A DNA stretch of 39,758 nt from a virus. Below the pieces are notes generated by a model, which saw nothing but the letters and a program-made list of their open reading frames with translations, ran no database searches and was not told the DNA's origin. A program made the translations under genes and the position numbers. Shown in pieces: positions 11,091-36,800 of the stretch. Every line of letters begins with the position of its first letter. Position 1 is the stretch's first letter. The stretch lies in UHGV virus genome UHGV-0465656. One strand, given 5' to 3'.

Positions 11091-13721
11091 ATGGCTAATT
11101 ACCGTGATTTGTTAGAGCAGGCTGGCGCACGTTACGGTGTGCCAGAAGGGTTGATGACTGCACTGGGTGCCAAGGAGTCTTCTTACAACCCTGCCGCAGT
11201 AAGCTCCGCCGGGGCTGTAGGATTGACTCAGGTCATGCCTGGGACATGGCGTGATATGGGTTATACCGATGAGCAAATGCAAAACCCCGAATATCAGGCT
11301 GACGCTGGCGCGCGCTATCTGGCAAAGATGTACCAGCAGTTTGGTAACTGGCGTGACGCTCTTCAGGCTTATCACGACGGTCCCGGCAACGTTATGAAGG
11401 CAAAGCGTGGTGAATATACGCCAGGACCTGAAGGCCGCGGTTACGTTGATGATCGCTTTGCTCAATGGGCGGGTGACCCGGTGACAGACTCAACAGTCGA
11501 ACAGCGCGCCACCTCTGCAAAGGTACATCCTCAGCAAGACCCTAACAACCCGTTTGCACAACTGGAAGTACAGTCATCCGAACAAGTATCGGCATCAGGT
11601 GTGCAGTCAGACCCAAATAATCCATTTGCTCAGATTGAGCAGCAGGCAGCCAGTCAGCAGCCACCTCAACCCGTAAGTTCTGTCGCACCGAAACCTGTTC
11701 AGCAACAAACAGTTAATCAGGCCAATAATGAACCAGCACGTGAAGAACCATCATTGATGCAACAAGCTGGCGATTGGCTCACAGGTGGTCAAAGTGCAGG
11801 GCAAATTGCAGAGCAGGCTGGTCGTGGTCTGGTAAACATACCATTCGACGTATTACAGGGCGGCGCAAGCCTGATTAATGCAATCAGTCAGGGGCTTGGT
11901 GGCCACAAGGTTTTGGATGATGTTTATCGCCCTGTCGATCGACCGACAGACCCTTACGCACAAGCCGGTGAAACAATTGGTGGGTATCTCCTGCCAATTG
12001 GCACAGCGGCAAAAGCTGCTGGAGCGACAGCAAAGCTCGCAGGAGACATCGGTTCCGCAGGAAACATGATTGCCGGTTCTCTTGCTGATGCTGCAAATCA
12101 GGAGGGTGATTTTGCACAAAATGCTGCCATTAACGGTGGTATCAATATTGGTGCTCAAGGCGTTATTTCAGGTGTCGGGCGCGTTATTGCGCCAAGGGTT
12201 TCACAGGCTCTTGGTGGTGCAGCACTGAATTCTGCTAATGATGTTTCCAGGATGGCAAAGTCAGGTGCTGGGCGTCAGTCAATTGCCAGTCAGGCCGCTA
12301 ATGTGTCCGAAGATGTAGCAAAAGCGGCTGAGTCTGCTGGAATTGATATAAACGCATTAACACCAGGAATGCGATCTGGAAGTCGTGGAATTGCACAAGC
12401 CGAAGGGATATTGGCATCCGAACCAGGAATTGTTCAGGATGCACATACTAGGGCTTTTAGTGAAATACAGTCGAAATTCCACTCAGCACTTGATGAACTT
12501 GGTGCTGAGGCTGGATCTGCATCAGAAAAAAGTGCAGCCATAAAACAAAGGGTTTTAGCAAGTATTGATAAAATGAAGAACTCAGAAAAGGCAGCATGGG
12601 ATAGCGTCCGCTCCACGATGCCTGACGCAAAGGCCAGAATGTCAAACCTGAACGCTACAATTCAGGGTGATATTTTGGCTGGCATGCCGCTAACTCCTGA
12701 GATGAAACAATTTGCATCTGCTTATGCTAAAACTGGTAAAAAAGGAATCACGTTTGATGCCATGAAGGCATGGCGAAGTAAACTTGCTGACGCTGAGCAG
12801 AAGTATATAAGGTCTGGTGAGGCAAATACGGCAAGGCGCATGGCGGAGCTTCGTGATGCAGCAACGGAAGATATGCGCATAATGGCTCAAAATGGCGGTT
12901 TTCTTGATGACTGGCAAAAAGCTAATGATCTATCAAAAGCAAGATTTACAGCACAAGAACAGGCTGAAGCAGCGTTTAGAAACCTTGCAACTGATCAGTT
13001 AGTCACTGATGGTATTAAAGCCTTGCAAAATTCATCAAAAAGTGGGACAGGAAAGTTTCATCAGATTATTGGCGCACTGCCAGAGTCTGAGCGATCTCCA
13101 GCAATTGCATCAATATTACAAGATGCGGTATCGCAAGGGGTGCGTGGCGGTAAATCAGAGTCTGCTGGCGTATTCCATATAGCGTCGATCCTTACGCCGC
13201 AGAACATTGCTGCCATTAGCAGGCACTCGCCAGAAATGGGTAAGATTGCTAGGGCATACAGCGACCTTGCCAGAGCAGCAACCAGACCACTGCGATATGT
13301 AGAGCATACGGGACGCTCTATACCGGCAATTAACTCTCTTGAGCAAGGACTGCCAAAAGCTGTCATGACAGTACTCAATGCAATAGGCAATTCAACATCA
13401 GGGGCTATTGTTGGTACCACTGGTGGAGGGATTGTTGGCGGTGTTGTGGGGGCTGTTTCTGGATCTATAGCTAAAGGGACGATAGAAAAGTTAGCTGCAT
13501 CCCGCAGTGGTCGTTACGCTATTGAAAAGGCTGTTCAAGAGGCAACAAAGGCAGTTAAGGTTGGGGCAAGTGATGGTGCATTAGCGGCGGCTGAACGCAG
13601 ATTTATGGCAAATAAGGCCGCCGTAAAAGCAATACGCGATGCAGTTGGAAACGAAGAGTTCCAGCGTTTGTCGAGGGCTGGGATTGTCGCCTCGTTAAGC
13701 GGTATGAATGAATATGAATAG
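11091..13721 (+). CDS. Ejection protein (gp16 position) with N-terminal lytic transglycosylase (SLT) domain; 876 aa
   Basis: N-terminal SLT signature [34 protein letters not shown]; DPNNPFAQ duplicated; internal AT-rich segment ~12300..13560. Confidence 0.75.
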
Positions 13722-13723
13722 CT

Positions 13724-14209
13724 TTATCTAATGTTGCTGCTACTGTTGCATGTGACGGTGTTTCCAAATCCTGAATTGCAGTTTGTATATGTGTCAACGC
13801 GTGTTGGGTAAGGTTGAGTTATAACAGGCTGGCGCGCTTTTTGCTCGATCGCTTGCATTGTGTTTACAGCCTGATAATTCAATAAAGCCTGCTGGAATGC
13901 TTGGCTTTGCGCTATTTGTTGGGCTTGTTCTTGGCTTTGTAATTGAACATAAAGATTCTGAAGCTCAAGTCTTGCCTGTGCGTCACTTATCTTGCCTTCA
14001 TCGACACCTTGCCCGAGCATCTTCGCAGCAAGGACATACAGCTTAGGTGTTGGTGCTGATGCCATGCGTGAGTCGTTCTTCACGCTGGCATCAAGGCAAT
14101 TAGCCATATCACTAAGCTTTGGATAGCGTTGTTCGCAACTTGCTTGGTAGTCACTTACTTTTGCGCATCCAGCCAGCAGAAGCGGGATAATTAACAGTGA
14201 TTTTTTCAT
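13724..14209 (-). CDS. Lipoprotein (signal peptide + lipobox LLAGC), Q-rich coiled-coil, unknown function
   Basis: MKKSLLIIPLLLAGCAK..; last gene of the mnt operon; convergent with the ejection-protein gene stop 2 bp away. Confidence 0.7.
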   Translation of the reverse strand: MKKSLLIIPLLLAGCAKVSDYQASCEQRYPKLSDMANCLDASVKNDSRMASAPTPKLYVLAAKMLGQGVDEGKISDAQARLELQNLYVQLQSQEQAQQIAQSQAFQQALLNYQAVNTMQAIEQKARQPVITQPYPTRVDTYTNCNSGFGNTVTCNSSSNIR

Positions 14210-14213
14210 ATGG

Positions 14214-14459
14214 TTAACTCTCCTTAGTTTTGCTCATGATCCCATTCATGTCTTTTGGTAGATACTTATGAATTGGCCAATCCATGAACGCAAGTGCTAG
14301 CCACGCAACCACGTTGAATCCAGGGATTGTTAAACATACCGCCATCTTCCAGTCAAAACCAGCTTTCTTAGATATTTTTAAAGCAGGTATAAAAAAGATG
14401 AAAACGAAAAAAATCACCATAATAATCAATGATAATGGCGACCCTTGTTGTTGCTCCAT
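14214..14459 (-). CDS. Small membrane protein (two predicted TM helices), unknown function
   Basis: Hydrophobic stretches LSLIIMVIFFVFIFFIPAL and VVAWLALAFMDW; AT-rich; immediately follows mnt. Confidence 0.6.
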   Translation of the reverse strand: MEQQQGSPLSLIIMVIFFVFIFFIPALKISKKAGFDWKMAVCLTIPGFNVVAWLALAFMDWPIHKYLPKDMNGIMSKTKES

Positions 14460-14461
14460 GG

Positions 14462-14704
14462 TTATCCTCCATCTCTTACACGTTTTAACACATCAATAGC
14501 TACATCAAACGCCTCTTGCTCAGACTTTGTCAGGATTCGACTACTTGAAGGTATTAGCTGCCCTTTATGAATTTTTATCCATAGTTCGATAGCTGAAATA
14601 ATCTCTGCGTTTATCGAGCGGCGATTTGTTGCAGCAATATGCGTAAGTTGCTGTTTTATCTCATCAGGCATTCTTACGTTGAATTGTGGATCATTTCTAG
14701 CCAC
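14462..14704 (-). CDS. mnt: Mnt-like ribbon-helix-helix repressor (GTG start)
   Basis: (M)ARNDPQFNVRMPDEIKQQL..NRRSINAEII resembles recalled P22 Mnt; AGGAG 6 nt upstream of GTG. Confidence 0.8.
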   Translation of the reverse strand: MARNDPQFNVRMPDEIKQQLTHIAATNRRSINAEIISAIELWIKIHKGQLIPSSSRILTKSEQEAFDVAIDVLKRVRDGG

Positions 14705-14723: not shown

Positions 14724-14766
14724 TTGACATGCTAGAACGGTAGTAGTACACTTTCAATAGTAGTAC
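14724..14766 (+). promoter_or_regulatory. Pant-like promoter (-35 TTGACA 14724..14729, 17-bp spacer, -10 TACACT 14747..14752) overlapped by two direct TAGTAGTAC repeats (14741..14749, 14758..14766)
   Basis: Divergent intergenic region between mnt and arc; repeats overlap -10 and start region. Confidence 0.55.
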
Positions 14767-14797
14767 GGTACTATCAACGAGTGAAATGGAGTTGAAT

Positions 14798-14956
14798 ATG
14801 CAAGGTGCAAGAAAAATGCCTCAGTTCAATTTGCGGTGGCCTAAAGAAGTATTGGATTTGGTGCGCAAGGTAGCTGAAGAGAACGGGCGATCTGTTAACT
14901 CTGAGATTTACAAGCGAGTGTTGGACAGCCTGAAGAGAGAAGGGATAACGGTATGA
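14798..14956 (+). CDS. arc: Arc repressor (52 aa)
   Basis: MQGARKMPQFNLRWPKEVLDLVRKVAEENGRSVNSEIYKRVLDSLKREGITV, near-identical to recalled P22 Arc; below ORF-track size cutoff. Confidence 0.9.
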   Translation: MQGARKMPQFNLRWPKEVLDLVRKVAEENGRSVNSEIYKRVLDSLKREGITV

Positions 14957-15174
14957 GGTTTATTGAGGTTGATGAGATTGGCTATGAGAATGCACTTGGT
15001 AGAGGTAAATCTTTAGTTAACATTGATGGCATTGAATCGATAAGGAGTGGTGAATTTACGGAGATCAGAATGATGTCAGGCGGAATCATTCCTTGCCGTG
15101 ACTCAGTAGAGTCAATCAAATCAAAAATGAGTGGTCAGTGGCTTTATAGCTACAGTGACTTACAAAAACAGTGA
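14953..15174 (+). CDS. Hypothetical protein (73 aa) between arc and ant
   Basis: ATGA overlap with arc stop; no recognisable motif. Confidence 0.4.
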   Translation: MRFIEVDEIGYENALGRGKSLVNIDGIESIRSGEFTEIRMMSGGIIPCRDSVESIKSKMSGQWLYSYSDLQKQ

Positions 15175-15204
15175 AGCCCCAACTGCGGTAACAGTCAGGG
15201 CTTC
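15173..15204 (-). terminator. Candidate terminator hairpin for an antisense (sar-like) RNA in the orf73-ant junction
   Basis: Stem GAAGCCC/GGGCTTC with inner ACTG/CAGT; on minus strand followed by ACUGUUUUUG. Confidence 0.3.
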
Positions 15205-15236
15205 GGTATCAACAAAACTTACGAGGTATTATTGAT

Positions 15237-16127
15237 ATGTCAAGCTTAGCAAAGTCAACTGTAAATTGCACTAATAGCATCATCATTTCCGACGTCAAGA
15301 TTCATATGGATTCAGAGGGGCGTTACTCGCTTAATGACCTTCATGTAGCGTCTGGGAAGGAGGAAAAACATCAGCCAGCTTTCTTCATGCGTAGAAATGA
15401 AACTATTGAATTGATTAATGAAATTTTTAATTCTGCGAATATGCAGAATAAGAATCCCGTCATTTCTAAGAAAGGTCGATATGGTGGAACCTATGTGTGC
15501 AAGGAGCTTGTTTACTCCTACGCCATGTGGATTAGCGCAGCATTTGCGCTGAAGGTTATCCGTGCATATGACGCAATGGTTACTGCCACACAGGAGAGGA
15601 AGACTATTGGCGGTAAAACTTCAGTAGCTGAACGCACACCGCTACGCGATGCAGTAAACATGCTGGTAGGAAAGAAAGGACTTCGCTATGACGATGCATA
15701 CAATATGGTTCATCAGCGTTTTGGTATTGACAGCATTGATGAACTTTCAATTGAACAAATCCCGCTGGCCGTAGAGTACATCCACAGGGTAGTGCTTGAA
15801 GGTGAGTTCATCGGCAAACAAGAGAAGAAAGCAAACGAGCTTTCTGCAAAAGAAGCAAACAGCCTTGTATGGTTATGGGATTATGCCAACCGTTCACAGG
15901 CATTATTCCGCGAACTGTATCCGGCGCTAAAACAAATTCAATCGAACTATTCCGGCAGATGCTACGACTACGGTCATGAATTCTCGTATGTTATCGGAAT
16001 GGCGAGAGACGTTTTAATCAATCACACACGAGATGTTGATATTAATGAGCCAGACGGACCAACGAATCTTTCCGCATGGATGAGACTTAAGAATAAAGAA
16101 TTACCTCCTTCAGTACATAACTACTGA
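15237..16127 (+). CDS. Antirepressor-like protein with KilA-N-type N-terminal domain
   Basis: Position after arc as P22 ant; 296 aa; N-terminal [33 protein letters not shown]. Confidence 0.6.
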
Positions 16128-16227: not shown

Positions 16228-18144
16228 ATGACAGACATTACAGCTAATGTGATTGTATCGATGCCTTCGCAACTCTTCACTATGGCTCGTTCTTTTAAAG
16301 CCGTAGCCAATGGAAAAATTTATATCGGTAAAATTGACACTGACCCGGTAAATCCCGAAAACCAGATTCAGGTTTATGTGGAGAACGAAGACGGCTCTCA
16401 CGTTCCTGTTTCGCAACCAATCATCATTAACGCTGCTGGTTACCCGGTATATAACGGACAGATTGCTAAGTTCGTAACTGTGCAATGCCATTCTATGGCT
16501 GTTTATGATGCGTATGGATCGCAGCAGTTCTATTTCCCTAATGTGCTGAAGTATGACCCTGATCAACTTTCTTCGCGCTTATCATCTGATGATGGTGCTT
16601 CTTATATTTCATTTAAGAAGCCTTATGCTGATGCTGCAACCAGAAAAGCATCTGACTACTTTAATCAGGAAATTAATGTAGATGACTTTGGTGCGTATGG
16701 CGATGCCTACTTATTGAACGGAGAAGATAACCTAAGCAAGCATGACGACACACACGCATTTCAGGCCGCTCTGATTGCTGCGTGGCGTGCAGGTGGTGTT
16801 AAAGTAGTAGCCACTCCGTGGAAAAGCTATTACATCGCCGGTAAAGTTTATGTGTTGGCTTCAGAATCTCCATCTGACATTGAAGAAACTAATTTCCCTA
16901 ATCGTCGGGTGCAAGTGATCGATTTTCAGGGCGCTCGCATCGTAGGCCGCGACGATACTTCCGACGAAAATAACGTATTCATTGAGACTGGTTATATAGC
17001 TTCTAGTGGTGCTATATCTTCTGTATTTGGAAAGTCTGGTGAAGAGTATCTAACCATAGGAACAATAATTCGCAATGCCACACTGATTAATTTCTATCAG
17101 GGGTTACGTTTGCGGAATCATGTATTTGGATGCGAGGTTACAGATATTGTTGGAGTAAATGTCCAGCAGTTGGTTTACACTCAGCGCTGCTTTTACTCTT
17201 TATTTCGCAATCTTCAGTGCAATGGTACATATACTACTGGTCTGCATCGCTATCACTTTACTGATGAATGCAACATTCAGCCATTAGTATCGGTTCACAC
17301 AGGAGAGTGTGATGTAGGTTTTAAGTTTGAAGGTGCGGTAGAGGCACTTACGCTGTTCAACTGTGGTATTGAAAGTTTTCGTACTCACGGTGTTTGGATT
17401 GCAGGTGCATATAACATCAAGTTTGATTCATGCTACATAGAGTCAAACGAAAGCAATGTGTATGGGGTTATAGCAACGAGCGCAAATAACATTACGCTGG
17501 ATAACTGCTGGATTTACGGTAGCAGTATGAAAATGTTTGGTGCATTCGACGACAATACCAACGTAAGAATTATGCCTAATAACCGTATTGGAGGAGGGGC
17601 AGTTTGGTGGGACCTTAACGAAGGGTCTCCGTACAACCTTTCCGACATTCACTGGCAAACAGATATAAAACCAGGCGGTACAACACTACCTGCTGCATCC
17701 GCTAAAGAGGCCAGCACAGTAGACCAGACTATAGTTTTCTACCACCCGGATTTAGGACTTAGTTCAGTTGTAGGGAAAGCCAAACAGACCAGTAAATACC
17801 ACCCGCAGCTTGTTAACGGCAAAATGAGTAACGGTAGCTCTGCTGCACATACAGTTGGCGCAAGTGTCTCTACAGAGGTTTCAGGTTCAGACACTAGAGC
17901 AAAATGGACAACGCAAATACAATACTCTGATACACAGCTTATTTTTTTAGCATTGAAGATAGATCATAACTTGGGGACATGGTTTTGGTTAGGTGTTGTG
18001 GCAGGAGATAAAGCGATGGTTATTTCAACATCTGATGAATCAAAGACTCCGGTTATAAGTAATGAAAATGGGTTTGTCGTAGTAGAGAGTCCGCTTCTTA
18101 TGACGCCAATAAATGTTCATGGTGGAGAAATAAGATTGCTATAG
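16228..18144 (+). CDS. Tailspike protein: conserved P22-type head-binding domain (aa 1-~110) fused to a divergent receptor-binding domain
   Basis: N-terminus [60 protein letters not shown] matches recalled P22 gp9; remainder unlike P22 and AT-richer. Confidence 0.9.
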
Positions 18145-18272: not shown

Positions 18273-19430
18273 TCACTCTACCTTTTCATCAATCCAGTCC
18301 GCCCACCACTGCATCATTTCTCTGCGCTTATCTAGATACTGAGCATGGTTGTAAATCCCACGCACAGATCCGCCGTTGGCATGTGCCAGTTGCACTTCAA
18401 TAGCATCAGCAGGCCATTCGTGCTCGTTCATAATCGTGCTGAATTCATGCCTGAATCCGTGACCGCTTTCCAGACCTTCATAGCCGATTTGTTTGATCAC
18501 AAGCAATACCGCGTTCTCGCAGATTGGCTTCTTCTTATCGTTGCGCCCGGCAAAAACAAACTCTGATACTGGTTTAGTGATGGAGCTTAGCGTAGTGAGA
18601 AGTTCAACCACCTGGTCTGACATAGGAACAACATGAATCTTGCGTCCCTTCATCACACTGGCGTCGATAGTGATAATCCTGTTTTCAAAATCGACGTTCT
18701 TCCATTGCATGGAACGAAGCTCTTTCGTTCTTAGGGCTGTGTAGCGTAAAACTTTGGTCGCAATGAGCGATACGATGCTTCCTGAAAATGTTGCCAGTGC
18801 TTTGTTGAATGCAGGGATCTGGTCTGCTGGAAGAAACGGGAAGTTCTTCTTGCGGTATCCTTTCATGGCGTCTGCAAGGTCAGGTGCCGGGTTATATTTA
18901 GCCCTTCCGGTGACAATAGCGTAACGGAAAACCTCGCCGCATCTTCTGCGGGCTTTGTTGGCTCGCTCCATTGCACCGCGATCTTCAAATCTGCGGATTA
19001 CTTCCAACAGTTGCATCGGCTCAATATCCTGAATCTCAAGACCGCCGATGATGGGTAAAATGTCGTCATCAAACATTTTTGCAAGTTCATTTGCATAGCC
19101 TACTGACCAGACTTGCTTCTTGTGCTCGTACCATTCCTTGTAAATGGCGCTAAAGGAATTGTTGTTAGACGAAGCCTTTTTCGCTTTTACCGGATCGATG
19201 CCAACCGAGATATCTTTCCTCGCGGTCCATGCTTTATCCCTTGCCTCCTGCAAAGTCATAAGTGGATATTTTCCGACGGTCAGGATTTTCTCCTTACCGT
19301 CAATCTTGTAGCGAAGCTGCCATACCTTTTTCCCGGATACAGGGACATAAAGGTACAGGCCATTACCATCGAGAAGGCGGTATGGTTTTTCTTTCGGCTT
19401 TGCTGCTTCAATCTGCTTAACGGTGAGCAT
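18273..19430 (-). CDS. int: Tyrosine integrase, P4-type
   Basis: N-terminus MLTVKQIEAAKPKEKPYRLLDGNGLYLYVPVSGKKVWQLRYKIDGKEK typical of P4-family integrases; start at second in-frame ATG (19430). Confidence 0.85.
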   Translation of the reverse strand: MLTVKQIEAAKPKEKPYRLLDGNGLYLYVPVSGKKVWQLRYKIDGKEKILTVGKYPLMTLQEARDKAWTARKDISVGIDPVKAKKASSNNNSFSAIYKEWYEHKKQVWSVGYANELAKMFDDDILPIIGGLEIQDIEPMQLLEVIRRFEDRGAMERANKARRRCGEVFRYAIVTGRAKYNPAPDLADAMKGYRKKNFPFLPADQIPAFNKALATFSGSIVSLIATKVLRYTALRTKELRSMQWKNVDFENRIITIDASVMKGRKIHVVPMSDQVVELLTTLSSITKPVSEFVFAGRNDKKKPICENAVLLVIKQIGYEGLESGHGFRHEFSTIMNEHEWPADAIEVQLAHANGGSVRGIYNHAQYLDKRREMMQWWADWIDEKVE

Positions 19431-19475
19431 GGGTAAAAATCCGGTGGGTAAAATTATTTTATCCACTTTTTACCC
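19431..19475. repeat. Arm-type repeats GGGTAAAA (19431..19438, 19446..19453) and TTTTACCC (19468..19475); further TTTTACCC copies at 19666..19673 and 19678..19685
   Basis: Five copies of an 8-mer or its reverse complement flanking the candidate att core. Confidence 0.5.
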
Positions 19476-27042: not shown

Positions 27043-28395
<1,353 letters not shown>

Positions 28396-35906: not shown

Positions 35907-36366
35907 TCAACGTAAGGCGTTCCTCGATATGCTGGCGTGGTCGGAGGGAACAGATAACGGACGTCAGAAAACCAGAAATCATGGTTATGACGTCATTGTA
36001 GGCGGAGAGCTATTCACTGATTACTCCGATCACCCTCGCAAACTTGTCACGCTAAACCCAAAGCTCAAATCAACAGCAGCCGGACGTTACCAGCTTCTTT
36101 CCCGTTGGTGGGATGCCTATCGTAAGCAGCTTGGCCTGAAAGACTTCTCTCCCAAAAGCCAGGACGCTGTTGCGCTGCAGCAGATTAAGGAACGTGGCGC
36201 TTTGCCGATGATTGATCGCGGTGATATCCGTCAGGCTATCGACCGTTGTAGCAATATCTGGGCTTCACTGCCGGGTGCTGGTTATGGCCAGTTCGAGCAT
36301 AAGGCTGACAGCCTGATTGCAAAATTCAAAGAGGCTGGCGGAGCGGTCAGAGAGATTGAGGTATGA
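35890..36366 (+). CDS. R: Endolysin R (lambda-type lytic transglycosylase)
   Basis: [53 protein letters not shown].. matches recalled lambda R. Confidence 0.95.
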
Positions 36367-36800
36367 GCAGAGTAACCGCGATTATCTCCGCTCTGGTTAT
36401 CTGCATCATCGTTTGCCTGTCATGGGCTGTTAATCATTACCGTGATAACGCCATCGCCTATAAAGAACAGCGCGATAAGGCCACATCCACAATCGCTGAC
36501 ATGCAGAAGCGTCAACGTGATGTAGCAGAACTTGACGCCAGATACACAAAGGAGCTTGCTGATGCTAACGCGACTATTGAAAGTCTCCGTGCTGATGTTT
36601 CTGCTGGGCGTAAGCGCCTGCAAGTCGCCGCCACCTGTGCAAAGTCAACGACCGGAGCCAGCGGCATGGGCGATGGAGAAAGCCCAGGACTTACAGCAGA
36701 TGCTGAACTCAATTATTACCGTCTCCGAAGTGGAATCGACAAGATAACCGCGCAGGTTAACTACCTGCAGGAATATATCAACACGCAGTGCCTGAAATGA
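36363..36800 (+). CDS. Rz: Rz i-spanin (lambda-like N-terminus, divergent C-terminal half)
   Basis: [31 protein letters not shown].. as recalled for lambda Rz, then diverges. Confidence 0.88.
36562..36747 (+). CDS. Rz1: Rz1 o-spanin lipoprotein embedded in +1 frame of Rz
   Basis: [36 protein letters not shown]..: signal peptide, lipobox Cys, Pro-rich. Confidence 0.8.

Follow-up and report, generated by a model that had tools for sequence, protein, structure and literature searches.

In a P22-like (Lederbergvirus) E. coli prophage, the ant moron, a hypervariable insert that separates ejection gene 16 from the tailspike gene, carries two small genes after mnt, one for a predicted inner-membrane protein with two transmembrane (TM) segments and one for a lipoprotein. 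These two genes are separately acquired, independent cargo and are seldom found together. It is proposed, with slightly less than even confidence, that both are independent envelope morons expressed in the lysogen, each of which would block DNA delivery by superinfecting phages. They are unproven candidates for superinfection exclusion, and the proposal draws on where they lie, on the mutual exclusivity that they show with sieA, and on the mobile-element or defence-like surroundings of distant relatives. What was determined directly, starting from the window (the whole stretch of 39,758 nucleotides that was analysed, UHGV-0465656), is the structure of the genes, their conservation and distribution, their place in the genome and the purifying selection on them.

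Organization of the ant moron

A sequence-only reading of this DNA had described three same-strand open reading frames between the ejection-protein genes and the tailspike gene. The same frames were found here on the minus strand (Table 1), with the ejection genes 7, 20 and 16 on one side and arc, ant and the tailspike gene on the other. The tight spacing was confirmed as well, with 2 bp between mnt and the 81-residue gene and 4 bp between the latter and the lipoprotein gene. Shine-Dalgarno sequences precede the 81-residue frame (GGAGGA) and the lipoprotein frame (AAGGAGAG). The 3' end of the lipoprotein gene meets the stop codon of gene 16 convergently across a 2-bp gap, and the gp16 of the window has a lytic transglycosylase domain at its N-terminus. 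The dN/dS values and the homologues in many genera indicate that the lipoprotein and TM frames are real genes and not chance open reading frames. The module had also been called AT-richer than its neighbours. This holds for the TM gene (37.8% G+C) and mnt (39.5%), but for the lipoprotein gene (45.1%) it stands against gene 16 (49.5%) only and fails otherwise (tailspike gene, 42.6%); the window has a G+C content of 47.8%.

Table 1. Features of the ant moron and the adjoining immI region (window coordinates)
Feature	Coordinates	Strand	Basis
Lipoprotein gene, 161 aa (phrog_6067)	13724..14209	-	AlphaFold2 model, dN/dS, family alignments
Recombination joint and native lipoprotein leader with Shine-Dalgarno, CTAAGGAGAGTTAACCAT 5' of ATG	14210..14244	-	Homology breakpoints
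Predicted two-TM inner-membrane protein, 81 aa (phrog_32536)	14214..14459	-	Hydropathy, family, dN/dS
mnt-type ribbon-helix-helix repressor, 80 aa, GTG start	14462..14704	-	Pfam Arc, E 1.8e-12
Pmnt-like sigma-70 promoter, TTGAAA / 17 nt spacer / TAGCAT	14729..14757	-	Consensus match only
Pant-like promoter, TTGACA / 17 nt spacer / TACACT, ahead of arc-orf73-ant	14724..14752	+	10/12 consensus positions; P22 immI layout
Operator-like repeats TAGAACGGTAGTA (14733-14745) and palindrome TAGTACGGTACTA (14761-14773)	14733..14773	.	Direct-repeat family D2
arc repressor, divergent partner of mnt	14786..14956	+	Pfam Arc, E 2.3e-26
sar antisense RNA	15170..15235	-	Rfam RF00262, 62.8 bits vs gathering score 43, E 8.2e-11
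ant antirepressor, KilA-N and P22_AR_C domains	15237..16127	+	Domain matches

The mnt gene and the immI switch

Mnt belongs to the Arc/Mnt ribbon-helix-helix proteins and aligns to P22 Mnt with 45% identity over residues 1-40, where the alignment ends. The two proteins are unrelated in their C-terminal halves, and a Pfam scan of the window's Mnt found no match to the tetramerisation domain Repressor_Mnt (PF11423), which is present in the Mnt alleles at some other lipoprotein loci. Salmonella phage Emek has an annotated mnt with 98% DNA identity to the one here. The immI region is complete (mnt, arc, sar RNA and ant); the sar RNA, located by its Rfam match, lies at the start of ant on the opposite strand and has a terminator-like hairpin at 15204..15173. 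As the switch is intact, Mnt should be made in lysogens.

The Pmnt-like promoter overlaps the divergent Pant-like promoter completely and lies about 18 nt 5' of the Shine-Dalgarno sequence and GTG of mnt, in agreement with the annotated Pmnt/Pant layout of P22. The repeats, which overlap both promoters, are putative operators by analogy with P22 Oarc and Omnt. Promoter and terminator calls are consensus matches whose number in the region is not above shuffle expectation. A terminator scan of the region found no terminator-like site from mnt to the lipoprotein stop. With this, the Pmnt-like promoter and the short gaps, the operon with mnt that had been suggested earlier is plausible. In the annotation of P22 a terminator stands 3' of mnt and sieA has a promoter of its own (PsieA), so co-transcription from Pmnt is not a given.

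The P22 immI region (Villafane et al. 2008, PMC2629481) shares with the window the divergent arrangement of mnt and arc-ant, the overlapping promoters, sar and the presence of cargo after mnt. It differs in the C-terminal half of Mnt, in the additional orf73 found here between arc and sar, in the cargo (orf59a and sieA in P22, the TM protein and the lipoprotein here), and in that no terminator-like site follows mnt in the window.

The two-TM protein

The 81-residue protein has the two TM segments ascribed to it (hydrophobic residues 9-27 and 39-59), joined by the loop KISKKAGFDWK with a charge of +3. Its dN/dS is 0.014 at a dS of 0.42 in comparison with phage Emek. It matches phrog_32536, a family with no assigned function (E 4.8e-52, residues 1-73 of 77). 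Only 12 protein clusters of this family are known, and a second profile search gave merely three marginal additions. All of the members examined come from P22-like prophages, where their genes lie in the interval from gene 16 to the tailspike gene, and the gene is present in 33 of 5426 complete E. coli genomes.

The lipoprotein

The lipoprotein has the lipobox LLAGC (Cys15), the long Gln-rich helix and the Cys144/Cys154 pair that had been claimed, and in addition a conserved Cys25/Cys38 pair that had gone unmentioned. The N-terminus MKKSLLIIPLLLAG-C15 matches the lipobox pattern [LVI][ASTVI][GAS]C, and Cys15 is kept in at least 90% of 102 aligned family members. Position +2 is Ala here and either Ala or Thr in 28 of 30 aligned members; two members of the Providencia/Morganella type have Val followed by Ala. 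Since no Asp, the inner-membrane retention signal, follows the lipidated Cys, the predicted destination is the outer membrane. No 19-residue window of the protein has a Kyte-Doolittle value above 1.6; the protein has no TM segment, only a short signal peptide that ends in the lipobox. The dN/dS is 0.021 at a dS of 0.25 (compared with phage Gally) and 0.036 at a dS of 0.48 (compared with phage VSe13).

The protein matches phrog_6067, again a family with no assigned function, over residues 1-161 of 161 (E 2.6e-110). An AlphaFold2 model built from 102 diverse family members reached a pLDDT of 89.1, whereas an earlier model from 30 close homologues was poor (pLDDT 63). The modelled protein consists of a small helical N-terminal domain holding C25/C38, a 50-residue Gln-rich helix (residues 76-125) and a C-terminal beta-hairpin holding C144/C154. 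A Foldseek search with the pLDDT 89 model found no structural neighbour in the PDB (best E 2.1) or in BFVD (best E 0.21).

The lipoprotein gene was found in 186 of the 5426 complete E. coli genomes (3.4%) and in prophages of at least ten enterobacterial genera, and the wider, unnamed family comprises 251 cluster representatives. A scan of genome contigs gave five loci only, and among 50,697 phage records there are five carriers, few P22-like phages among them. The gene is convergent with gene 16 and antisense to the late operon at all 80 IMG/VR loci and at eight loci from other genera (Yersinia, Morganella, Providencia, two Tatumella, an Enterobacteriaceae MAG, and two contigs with a relative of about 39% identity). 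At the loci examined it usually follows an mnt gene and sometimes stands alone; about 30 loci have mnt, a 70-bp gap and then the lipoprotein gene. In Yersinia and Morganella prophages it is the sole gene between gene 16 and the tailspike gene, and phage Gally has a gene on the opposite strand and a terminator-like site between the lipoprotein gene and mnt, which shows that elsewhere the lipoprotein does not depend on mnt. The length of the partner gp16 varies widely across the lipoprotein loci, from about 615 to 885 residues, and at least one partner, judged by its N-terminal sequence, does not have the transglycosylase-type N-terminus of the window's gp16.

The contexts of seven distant family members were also examined. 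One is in another P22-like ant moron. Two adjoin giant ddrB-ParB polyvalent protein genes of another phage type, and one of these is convergent on the giant gene with zero gap. One is in the cargo region of a satellite-like element (integrase, AlpA, primase), one is beside ThsB-TIR and SLATT genes in a defence-island-like region, and two are in housekeeping chromosomal neighbourhoods. The last two suggest that the fold may have a housekeeping role in the envelope. A Cronobacter relative bears the label "GspK", which probably stems from a Gln-rich noise match.

Joining of the two genes

The sequence-only reading had treated the TM protein and the lipoprotein as one two-protein module. This was not supported, as the TM gene is present in only 2 of 80 lipoprotein loci and the lipoprotein gene in only 2 of 15 TM loci. 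The fused arrangement occurs in 8-9 of the 5426 complete E. coli genomes (strains PEC301, VG48B2 and FREC5 carry it), far fewer than carry either gene, and elsewhere each gene has other partners (orf69 or a ClpP-like protein) or none. An obligate TM-lipoprotein pair was rejected on the locus co-occurrence and the genome counts. In the window the two genes meet at a recombination joint at about 14240-14244; homology to Emek begins at about 14244 and homology to Gally stops at about 14240. An identical leader precedes the lipoprotein gene at a locus without the TM gene. The TM reading frame enters this leader, so that the usual C-terminal tail of the family is replaced; the tail reads PKDMNGIMSKTKES here and PKDVKK in most other family members.

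Relationship to SieA

The slot is that of sieA in P22, as had been recognized: between the homologues of gene 16 and gene 9 (the tailspike gene), leftward, antisense to the late operon and after mnt. The lipoprotein loci examined have the same gene 16-gene 9, antisense position. This slot gathers envelope proteins. A study by Leavitt et al. (2024, PMC10883804) described SieA types A, B and C; sieA is present in just 22 of 66 sequenced P22-like phages, which leads one to expect other occupants of the slot, and in P22 it is expressed in the lysogen (PMC10883804). The contents of the slot in other prophages included signal-peptide proteins of 104 and 112 residues, a 153-residue TM protein and an opposite-strand lipoprotein.

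The statement that neither product resembles SieA was borne out. BLASTP of the lipoprotein against SieA gave no alignment at E <= 100, and the TM protein gave E 3.6 across 10 residues; SieA homology was rejected for both. The conserved cytoplasmic SieA motif FxRYPxEAxxFNK was sought with a regular expression that matches all 33 IMG/VR sieA loci and P22 itself, and neither the window nor any of the lipoprotein or TM loci gave a match. SieA resides in the inner membrane, with three predicted TM segments (type A) or four, whereas the lipoprotein bears a lipobox and lacks TM segments and the 81-residue protein has two TM segments. What is shared is the slot, the predicted envelope location and, for the lipoprotein, the size (161 residues, compared with 162-164 for SieA). 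The exclusion activity of SieA, a block to DNA injection by P22-like phages that leaves adsorption intact, has been demonstrated (PMC10883804), whereas that of the lipoprotein and the TM protein is proposed here. P22-type sieA was found in 0 of 80 lipoprotein loci, and the lipoprotein or TM gene in 0 of 32 sieA loci. This mutual exclusivity could merely reflect alternative alleles at a recombination hot spot.

Other known systems

Pfam, NCBIfam and PADLOC scans of the lipoprotein and the TM protein gave nothing significant. The lipoprotein scored 18.9 bits with NCBIfam GspK, for which the cutoff is 130, and this is noise from its Gln-rich sequence. In PADLOC-DB 2.0 neither the lipoprotein nor Mnt had a match, and the TM protein had only ZorA (E 0.015, 12 bits), which is hydrophobic noise. 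A literature search found no paper on the lipoprotein, the TM protein or their RefSeq accessions. Comparison within the window led to the rejection of either protein as a paralogue of another window protein.

Cor (phages T1, phi80 and N15) and Llp (T5) are outer-membrane lipoproteins that block the FhuA receptor. Like them, the lipoprotein is a small phage lipoprotein whose predicted place is the outer membrane's inner leaflet, where it would work from the periplasmic side. Homology was not found, as phrog_1119 (Cor) matched at E 0.078 over residues 1-29, which is the signal peptide only, and there was no Pfam match. The fold class, a long helix with a beta-hairpin, differs, as do the carriers, which are FhuA-dependent siphophages for Cor and Llp and a podophage using O-antigen for the lipoprotein. 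Lambda Bor is a prophage-expressed outer-membrane lipoprotein with a part in serum resistance. It is likewise a prophage-borne lipoprotein moron, and lysogen expression is expected here too, but it has no sequence similarity to the lipoprotein (no Pfam match) and differs in genomic position and size. An Rz1-type o-spanin, a small Pro-rich lipoprotein whose gene lies inside or beside Rz, was rejected since the lipoprotein gene lies 22 kb from the lysis genes and phrog_11621 matched at E 0.058 only. The phage encodes Rz itself, together with a candidate Rz1-like lipobox frame (36532..36747, within a 145-residue frame at 36363..36800), so that the lipoprotein is not needed as a spanin.

T4 Imm is the product of a lytic phage, made early in infection. 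With 83 residues it is close in size to the TM protein and shares with it a pair of TM helices, a short loop with basic residues and a polar tail at the C-terminus. Homology to Imm was rejected, as hhalign of the TM family profile gave a probability of 0.4% (E 0.14, 6 columns), there was no match to Pfam Imm_superinfect, and 13 TM-family members had no Pfam match at all at E <= 10.

Proposed function and alternatives

In the lysogen, Mnt made from Pmnt would silence the antirepressor gene ant, and the leftward mnt transcript, antisense to the late operon, most likely runs on through both cargo genes. The 81-residue protein would form a helical hairpin in the inner membrane with its basic loop in the cytoplasm and would act there in the manner of T4 Imm or SieA. 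The 161-residue protein would receive its lipid at Cys15 and go to the outer membrane, from which three parts are predicted to extend into the periplasm: a small helical domain and a beta-hairpin, both disulfide-stapled, and a helix of about 75 A. It would replace SieA by position and interfere at the outer-membrane or periplasmic stage. Each protein probably binds either the ejection-protein conduit or a conserved component of the host envelope. The very strong purifying selection fits a conserved host target better than an arms race with fast-evolving ejection proteins. Co-transcription, localisation, topology, exclusion function and targets are what we infer from the data above. A bolder version, which we regard as possible but rather doubtful, is that the lipoprotein founds a widespread and so far unrecognized class of outer-membrane-anchored anti-phage exclusion proteins, standing in for SieA in P22-like prophages and also carried by satellites and other phages, in which the helix and hairpin would obstruct the trans-periplasmic conduit or a host factor that it needs. 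The 81-residue protein would then be a separate, Imm-like blocker at the inner membrane, and the two together would make a two-layer barrier.

The genes may instead be lysogen-expressed envelope morons that help the host by means other than exclusion, such as serum or complement resistance (as for lambda Bor), tolerance of envelope stress, or adhesion. The family members in non-phage chromosomal neighbourhoods agree with this, very strong purifying selection suits a host-directed function, and the ant moron is known to hold varied genes of non-identical function (PMC2629481). We consider it unlikely, given that the position of the lipoprotein gene beside the ejection genes is strictly kept across genera, that it is mutually exclusive with sieA, that relatives are found in satellite cargo and by TIR/SLATT genes, and that no similarity to Bor, TraT or another Pfam family was found. 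The constant position beside gene 16, which codes for the last injected protein, could also speak for a role of the lipoprotein in the lytic cycle or infection of its own phage, in handling or neutralising injected proteins, in protecting the wall from the gp16 transglycosylase, or in lysis and release. The giant polyvalent ddrB-ParB proteins are believed to be injected, and the family member that abuts such a gene in an unrelated phage type, like the transglycosylase domain of the window's gp16, would fit. Such a role is nonetheless quite improbable. Late transcription would oppose expression of a gene that is antisense to the late operon at every locus examined, the rarity of the gene among phage records shows that it is dispensable for the lytic cycle, and the phage has its own Rz and candidate Rz1. 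The differences among the partner gp16 proteins in length and N-terminus count against it too, and led to the rejection of an inhibitor specific to the transglycosylase domain.

Two further explanations make partners of adjacent genes. An obligate two-component complex of TM protein and lipoprotein across the envelope is suggested by the 4-bp gap and the predicted location of the products in opposite membranes, and the long helix of the modelled lipoprotein could span part of the periplasm. We judge it very improbable in view of the rare co-occurrence, the genome counts and the other partners of each gene, and the junction arose by recent recombination, which rewrote the tail of the TM protein. 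Hardly credible, to our mind, is a toxin-antitoxin or abortive-infection pair of mnt (a ribbon-helix-helix antitoxin) and the 81-residue gene (a small membrane toxin). The 2-bp gap to a small hydrophobic protein, the retention of the mnt allele-TM gene pairing in Emek and E. coli 13KWH46, and weak Pfam scores of Mnt against ribbon-helix-helix antitoxins (FitA-like, 8e-5; ParD-like, 0.11) point that way. Against this, the repressor belongs to a complete immI region with divergent arc, sar, ant and operator-like repeats and aligns to P22 Mnt, in Pectobacterium another gene and a gap of 196 bp lie between mnt and the TM gene, and PADLOC gave no significant match.

Significance

The lipoprotein merits attention for its dN/dS of about 0.03, its presence in at least ten enterobacterial genera and in a few percent of complete E. 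coli genomes, and its never occurring with sieA at the loci sampled. Should exclusion be its function, no earlier blocker of podophage DNA delivery in the outer membrane or periplasm is known to us. The protein would then offer a way to learn how the gp7/gp20/gp16 conduit passes through the envelope and would give a name and a function to several hundred unannotated lipoproteins of mobile elements. Exclusion of this kind would also bear on the host range of therapeutic and typing phages of E. coli and Salmonella.

The immI region of the prophage

The genome is that of a P22-like (Lederbergvirus) temperate phage with closest resemblance to E. coli prophages, and it carries a complete immI-type region between gene 16 and the tailspike gene. 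The Mnt protein shares 45% identity with P22 Mnt across residues 1-40 and no relationship beyond. Within the 81-bp mnt-arc gap, Pmnt-like and Pant-like promoters overlap each other and are accompanied by operator-like repeats, TAGAACGGTAGTA and the palindrome TAGTACGGTACTA, an arrangement that mirrors the annotated P22 layout. The sar antisense RNA and its terminator hairpin are also present, so the immI switch is complete in the prophage. An additional gene, orf73, and the arc stop codon overlap by 4 bp. The same ORF occurs in phage Emek and in E. coli 13KWH46; there is no ORF at that position in P22. The gp16 protein is 876 aa in length compared to 609 aa in P22, and ranges from about 615 to 885 aa where it adjoins the lipoprotein in other prophages. 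Elsewhere, the c2-like repressor gene is followed immediately, on its own strand, by a 158-aa ORF. This is where lambda has rexAB, which makes the ORF a candidate for another lysogen-expressed gene.

Features of the prophage and of the comparison loci (L handles)
Feature	Coordinates	Strand	Remarks
genes 7, 20, 16	9057..13721
gene 16	11091..13721	+	N-terminal lytic transglycosylase domain (PHROG transglycosylase and lytic tail protein matches)
lipoprotein gene	13724..14209	-	161 aa
TM protein gene	14214..14459	-	81 aa
homopolymer runs, first-TM-segment coding region	14368..14472; 14380..14420	-	T7, T4, T6, A5
mnt	14462..14704	-	Pfam Arc, E 1.8e-12
arc	14786..14956		divergent from mnt
orf73	14953..15174	+	73 aa; phrog_11805; between arc and sar/ant
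sar antisense RNA	15170..15235	-	Rfam RF00262, 62.8 bits
sar terminator hairpin	15204..15173
ant	15237..16127
tailspike gene	16228..18144
integrase gene	18273..19466
158-aa ORF	27043..27519	-	phrog_2651, match from residue 39
c2-like repressor gene	27444..28076
145-aa ORF	36363..36800		probably Rz, by position
candidate Rz1-like ORF	36532..36747	+	lipobox LGVSAC, then Pro-rich stretch; embedded in 145-aa ORF
104-aa signal-peptide protein	L018 3661..3975		other slot cargo
112-aa signal-peptide protein	L013 3604..3942		other slot cargo
153-aa TM protein	L014 3519..3980		other slot cargo
ClpP-like 178-aa protein	L005 4269..4805		other slot cargo
second lipoprotein, 139 aa	L002 4121..4540	opposite	other slot cargo; LSGC lipobox
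P0152 (wider family)	L156 5001..5534
P0240 (wider family)	L155 6001..6888

The cargo genes behind mnt

The mnt gene is followed after 2 bp by the 81-aa gene and after a further 4 bp by the 161-aa gene, all on one strand, and the sequence-only reading had these ORFs, their strand and both gaps correct in every detail. Each of the two downstream genes has a Shine-Dalgarno sequence of its own, no terminator-like site was predicted upstream of the lipoprotein stop, and the stops of the lipoprotein gene and gene 16 are convergent and 2 bp apart. In P22, the prophage state requires Mnt, and sieA is expressed in the lysogen. The P22 annotation shows a terminator after mnt and a separate promoter, PsieA, unlike the read-through from Pmnt assumed here. 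With immI intact, the cargo genes would be transcribed from Pmnt in lysogens, and the lysogen expression proposed earlier is plausible.

Both ORFs are real genes. The lipoprotein has 94 close homologue clusters (48-98% identity) in E. coli, Citrobacter, Serratia, Klebsiella aerogenes, Cronobacter, Pectobacterium, Yersinia, Morganella, Providencia and Tatumella, with dN/dS values of 0.021 against phage Gally (dS 0.25) and 0.036 against phage VSe13 (dS 0.48). The TM protein has just 12 clusters (E. coli, Pectobacterium, Pluralibacter) and three marginal matches; its dN/dS against phage Emek is 0.014 (dS 0.42), and it retains 82% amino-acid identity with Pectobacterium despite saturated synonymous sites. 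Homopolymer runs occur in the region encoding its first TM segment, and three family members (P0098, P0101 and P0106) resemble frame-shifted forms of it, with the original frame restored ahead of KAGFDW. In the window itself the alternative frame is open, as a 34-aa ORF. Slippage or phase variation is one possible explanation of these variants; decay and gene-calling artefacts are others.

The hydrophobic segments of the TM protein (9-27 and 39-59) flank a loop, KISKKAGFDWK, of net charge +3, with -1 at the N-terminus and +1 at the C-terminus. By the positive-inside rule the loop would be cytoplasmic and both ends periplasmic, and we infer insertion as an inner-membrane hairpin. The conserved core of the family comprises the loop, the second TM segment and DWPIHK.

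The lipoprotein signal sequence, MKKSLLIIPLLLAG-C15, is followed by Ala; as there is no Asp at +2, sorting to the outer membrane is predicted. The AlphaFold2 model is confident (pLDDT 89.1, from a 102-sequence alignment of the wider family) and consists of a small four-helix N-domain (18-70) bearing Cys25 and Cys38, a single 50-residue Gln-rich helix (76-125), a Pro-rich linker, and a C-terminal beta-hairpin (139-146 / 152-159) bearing Cys144 and Cys154. An oxidising, periplasmic location would be in keeping with the presence of two conserved Cys pairs. In an alignment of close homologues (A1), the linker and hairpin (~128-161) occur as at least three alternative sequence types, for example tips ending in TNCNSGFGNTVTCNSSSNIR or TTNCTTYGNQTRCQSY, on a nearly invariant N-domain, which suggests that the C-terminal tip is exchanged as a module.

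A shared slot, separate cargo

The interval between gene 16 and the tailspike gene is the 'ant moron' of Villafane et al., with ten types in sixteen genomes and functions known for P22 alone (PMC2629481). The proposal that the genes occupy the sieA slot of P22 was confirmed. In all 80 IMG/VR loci and the eight loci examined from other genera, the lipoprotein gene runs antisense to the late operon and converges with gene 16 at the end of the latter. P22-type sieA was found in 0/80 lipoprotein loci and the lipoprotein in 0/32 sieA loci, making the two mutually exclusive in this sample.

The interval collects envelope proteins. Upstream of the lipoprotein lies mnt at 70 bp (about 30 loci), mnt and then a 104-aa signal-peptide protein (nine loci), an intervening lipoprotein of a different kind on the opposite strand (17 loci) or a 692-bp gap (15 loci); seven loci are without any ribbon-helix-helix gene. 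In prophages of Yersinia ruckeri and Morganella, nothing but the lipoprotein gene separates gene 16 from the tailspike gene, and in those of Providencia and Tatumella other TM or secreted proteins accompany it. The order tailspike / mnt / lipoprotein / gene 16 is preserved around a divergent relative (~39% identity across the 97 N-terminal residues aligned). Pectobacterium prophages, which have the TM gene and no lipoprotein, carry a ClpP-like gene between mnt and the TM gene.

The two genes were previously read as one module; they are instead separate cargo. Among 5426 complete E. coli genomes, the lipoprotein gene occurs in 186, the TM gene in 33 and the window's arrangement in 8-9. In IMG/VR, the TM gene is found in 2/80 lipoprotein loci and the lipoprotein in 2/15 TM loci. 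Of 50,697 phage records, five carry the lipoprotein (Gally, vB_EcoP-720R6, VSe13, 'MS2 LVA' and Proteus phage Brookers) and Emek alone the TM gene. DNA homology to Emek (mnt, TM, arc, ant) ends at ~14244 and homology to Gally (lipoprotein) begins at ~14240. The ~30 bp before the lipoprotein ATG are its own leader, identical in loci without the TM gene; the TM frame continues into it, which has given the TM protein an atypical tail. By this comparison of sequences, the tricistronic operon is a recent recombinant.

Comparison with known families

Pfam, NCBIfam and PADLOC scans of both proteins gave nothing significant; PHROG assigns phrog_6067 (lipoprotein) and phrog_32536 (TM protein), neither with an assigned function. 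Both are labelled 'hypothetical protein' by PGAP, and a literature search found no paper mentioning either. SieA crosses the inner membrane three times and carries the motif FxRYPxEAxxFNK (PMC10883804). Neither product aligns with SieA and the window lacks the motif, in agreement with the dissimilarity noted earlier. The only Cor match is confined to the lipoprotein signal peptide (E 0.078). T4 Imm resembles the TM protein in size and two-TM layout, but there is no profile similarity (hhalign probability 0.4%). A spanin identity for the lipoprotein was rejected, and a candidate Rz1-like lipobox ORF was found elsewhere in the window. The 'general secretion pathway protein GspK' annotation of P0023, the Cronobacter dublinensis homologue, is apparently artefactual and due to a weak Gln-rich match (NF037980, 18.9 bits where the cutoff is 130).

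When 1.84 billion cluster representatives were searched with a profile, 251 proteins were recovered at E < 1e-3 (94 at E < 1e-10), mostly 125-140-aa lipoproteins sharing the N-domain and the C-terminal motif TTNCxxxGNxxxCxxY. Of ten members scanned none had a significant Pfam match, and none of ten clusters looked up had an informative name. Seven distant members were sampled for context. One lies in another P22-like ant moron; two are neighbours of giant ddrB-ParB polyvalent proteins in a phage of another type, in one case convergent and with zero gap; P0152 adjoins a T5orf172/MUG113 gene in the cargo region of a satellite-like element with integrase, AlpA and primase; P0240, a tandem two-domain form, is beside ThsB-TIR, SLATT and QueC genes; and two are in ordinary chromosomal neighbourhoods.

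Proposed function

That the wider family leans toward mobile elements and defence-like settings is evidence for an anti-phage role. Together with the slot, the orientation and the exclusivity with sieA, it leads us to favour, tentatively and short of calling it probable, a role of the cargo proteins in phage exclusion. Given the chromosomal members, the fold may also serve a housekeeping envelope function, and lysogenic conversion that benefits the host is a rather unlikely alternative. A role in the phage's own cycle, for a lipoprotein gene antisense to the late operon, is quite improbable. Slimmer still is the chance of an obligate complex of the TM protein and the lipoprotein, adjacent here and rarely found together elsewhere. 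Least likely of all is that the ribbon-helix-helix protein encoded directly upstream here is one half of a toxin-antitoxin or abortive-infection pair.

If the proteins act in exclusion, dN/dS values this low argue for a conserved target, either a component of the host envelope or a conserved portion of the conduit, and not for the hypervariable ejection proteins. P22 DNA injection requires the inner-membrane factor YajC (cited in PMC10883804), which the TM protein might, speculatively, target. The cargo genes belong with the prophage envelope morons, or exclusion candidates, and draw on an uncharacterised protein family.
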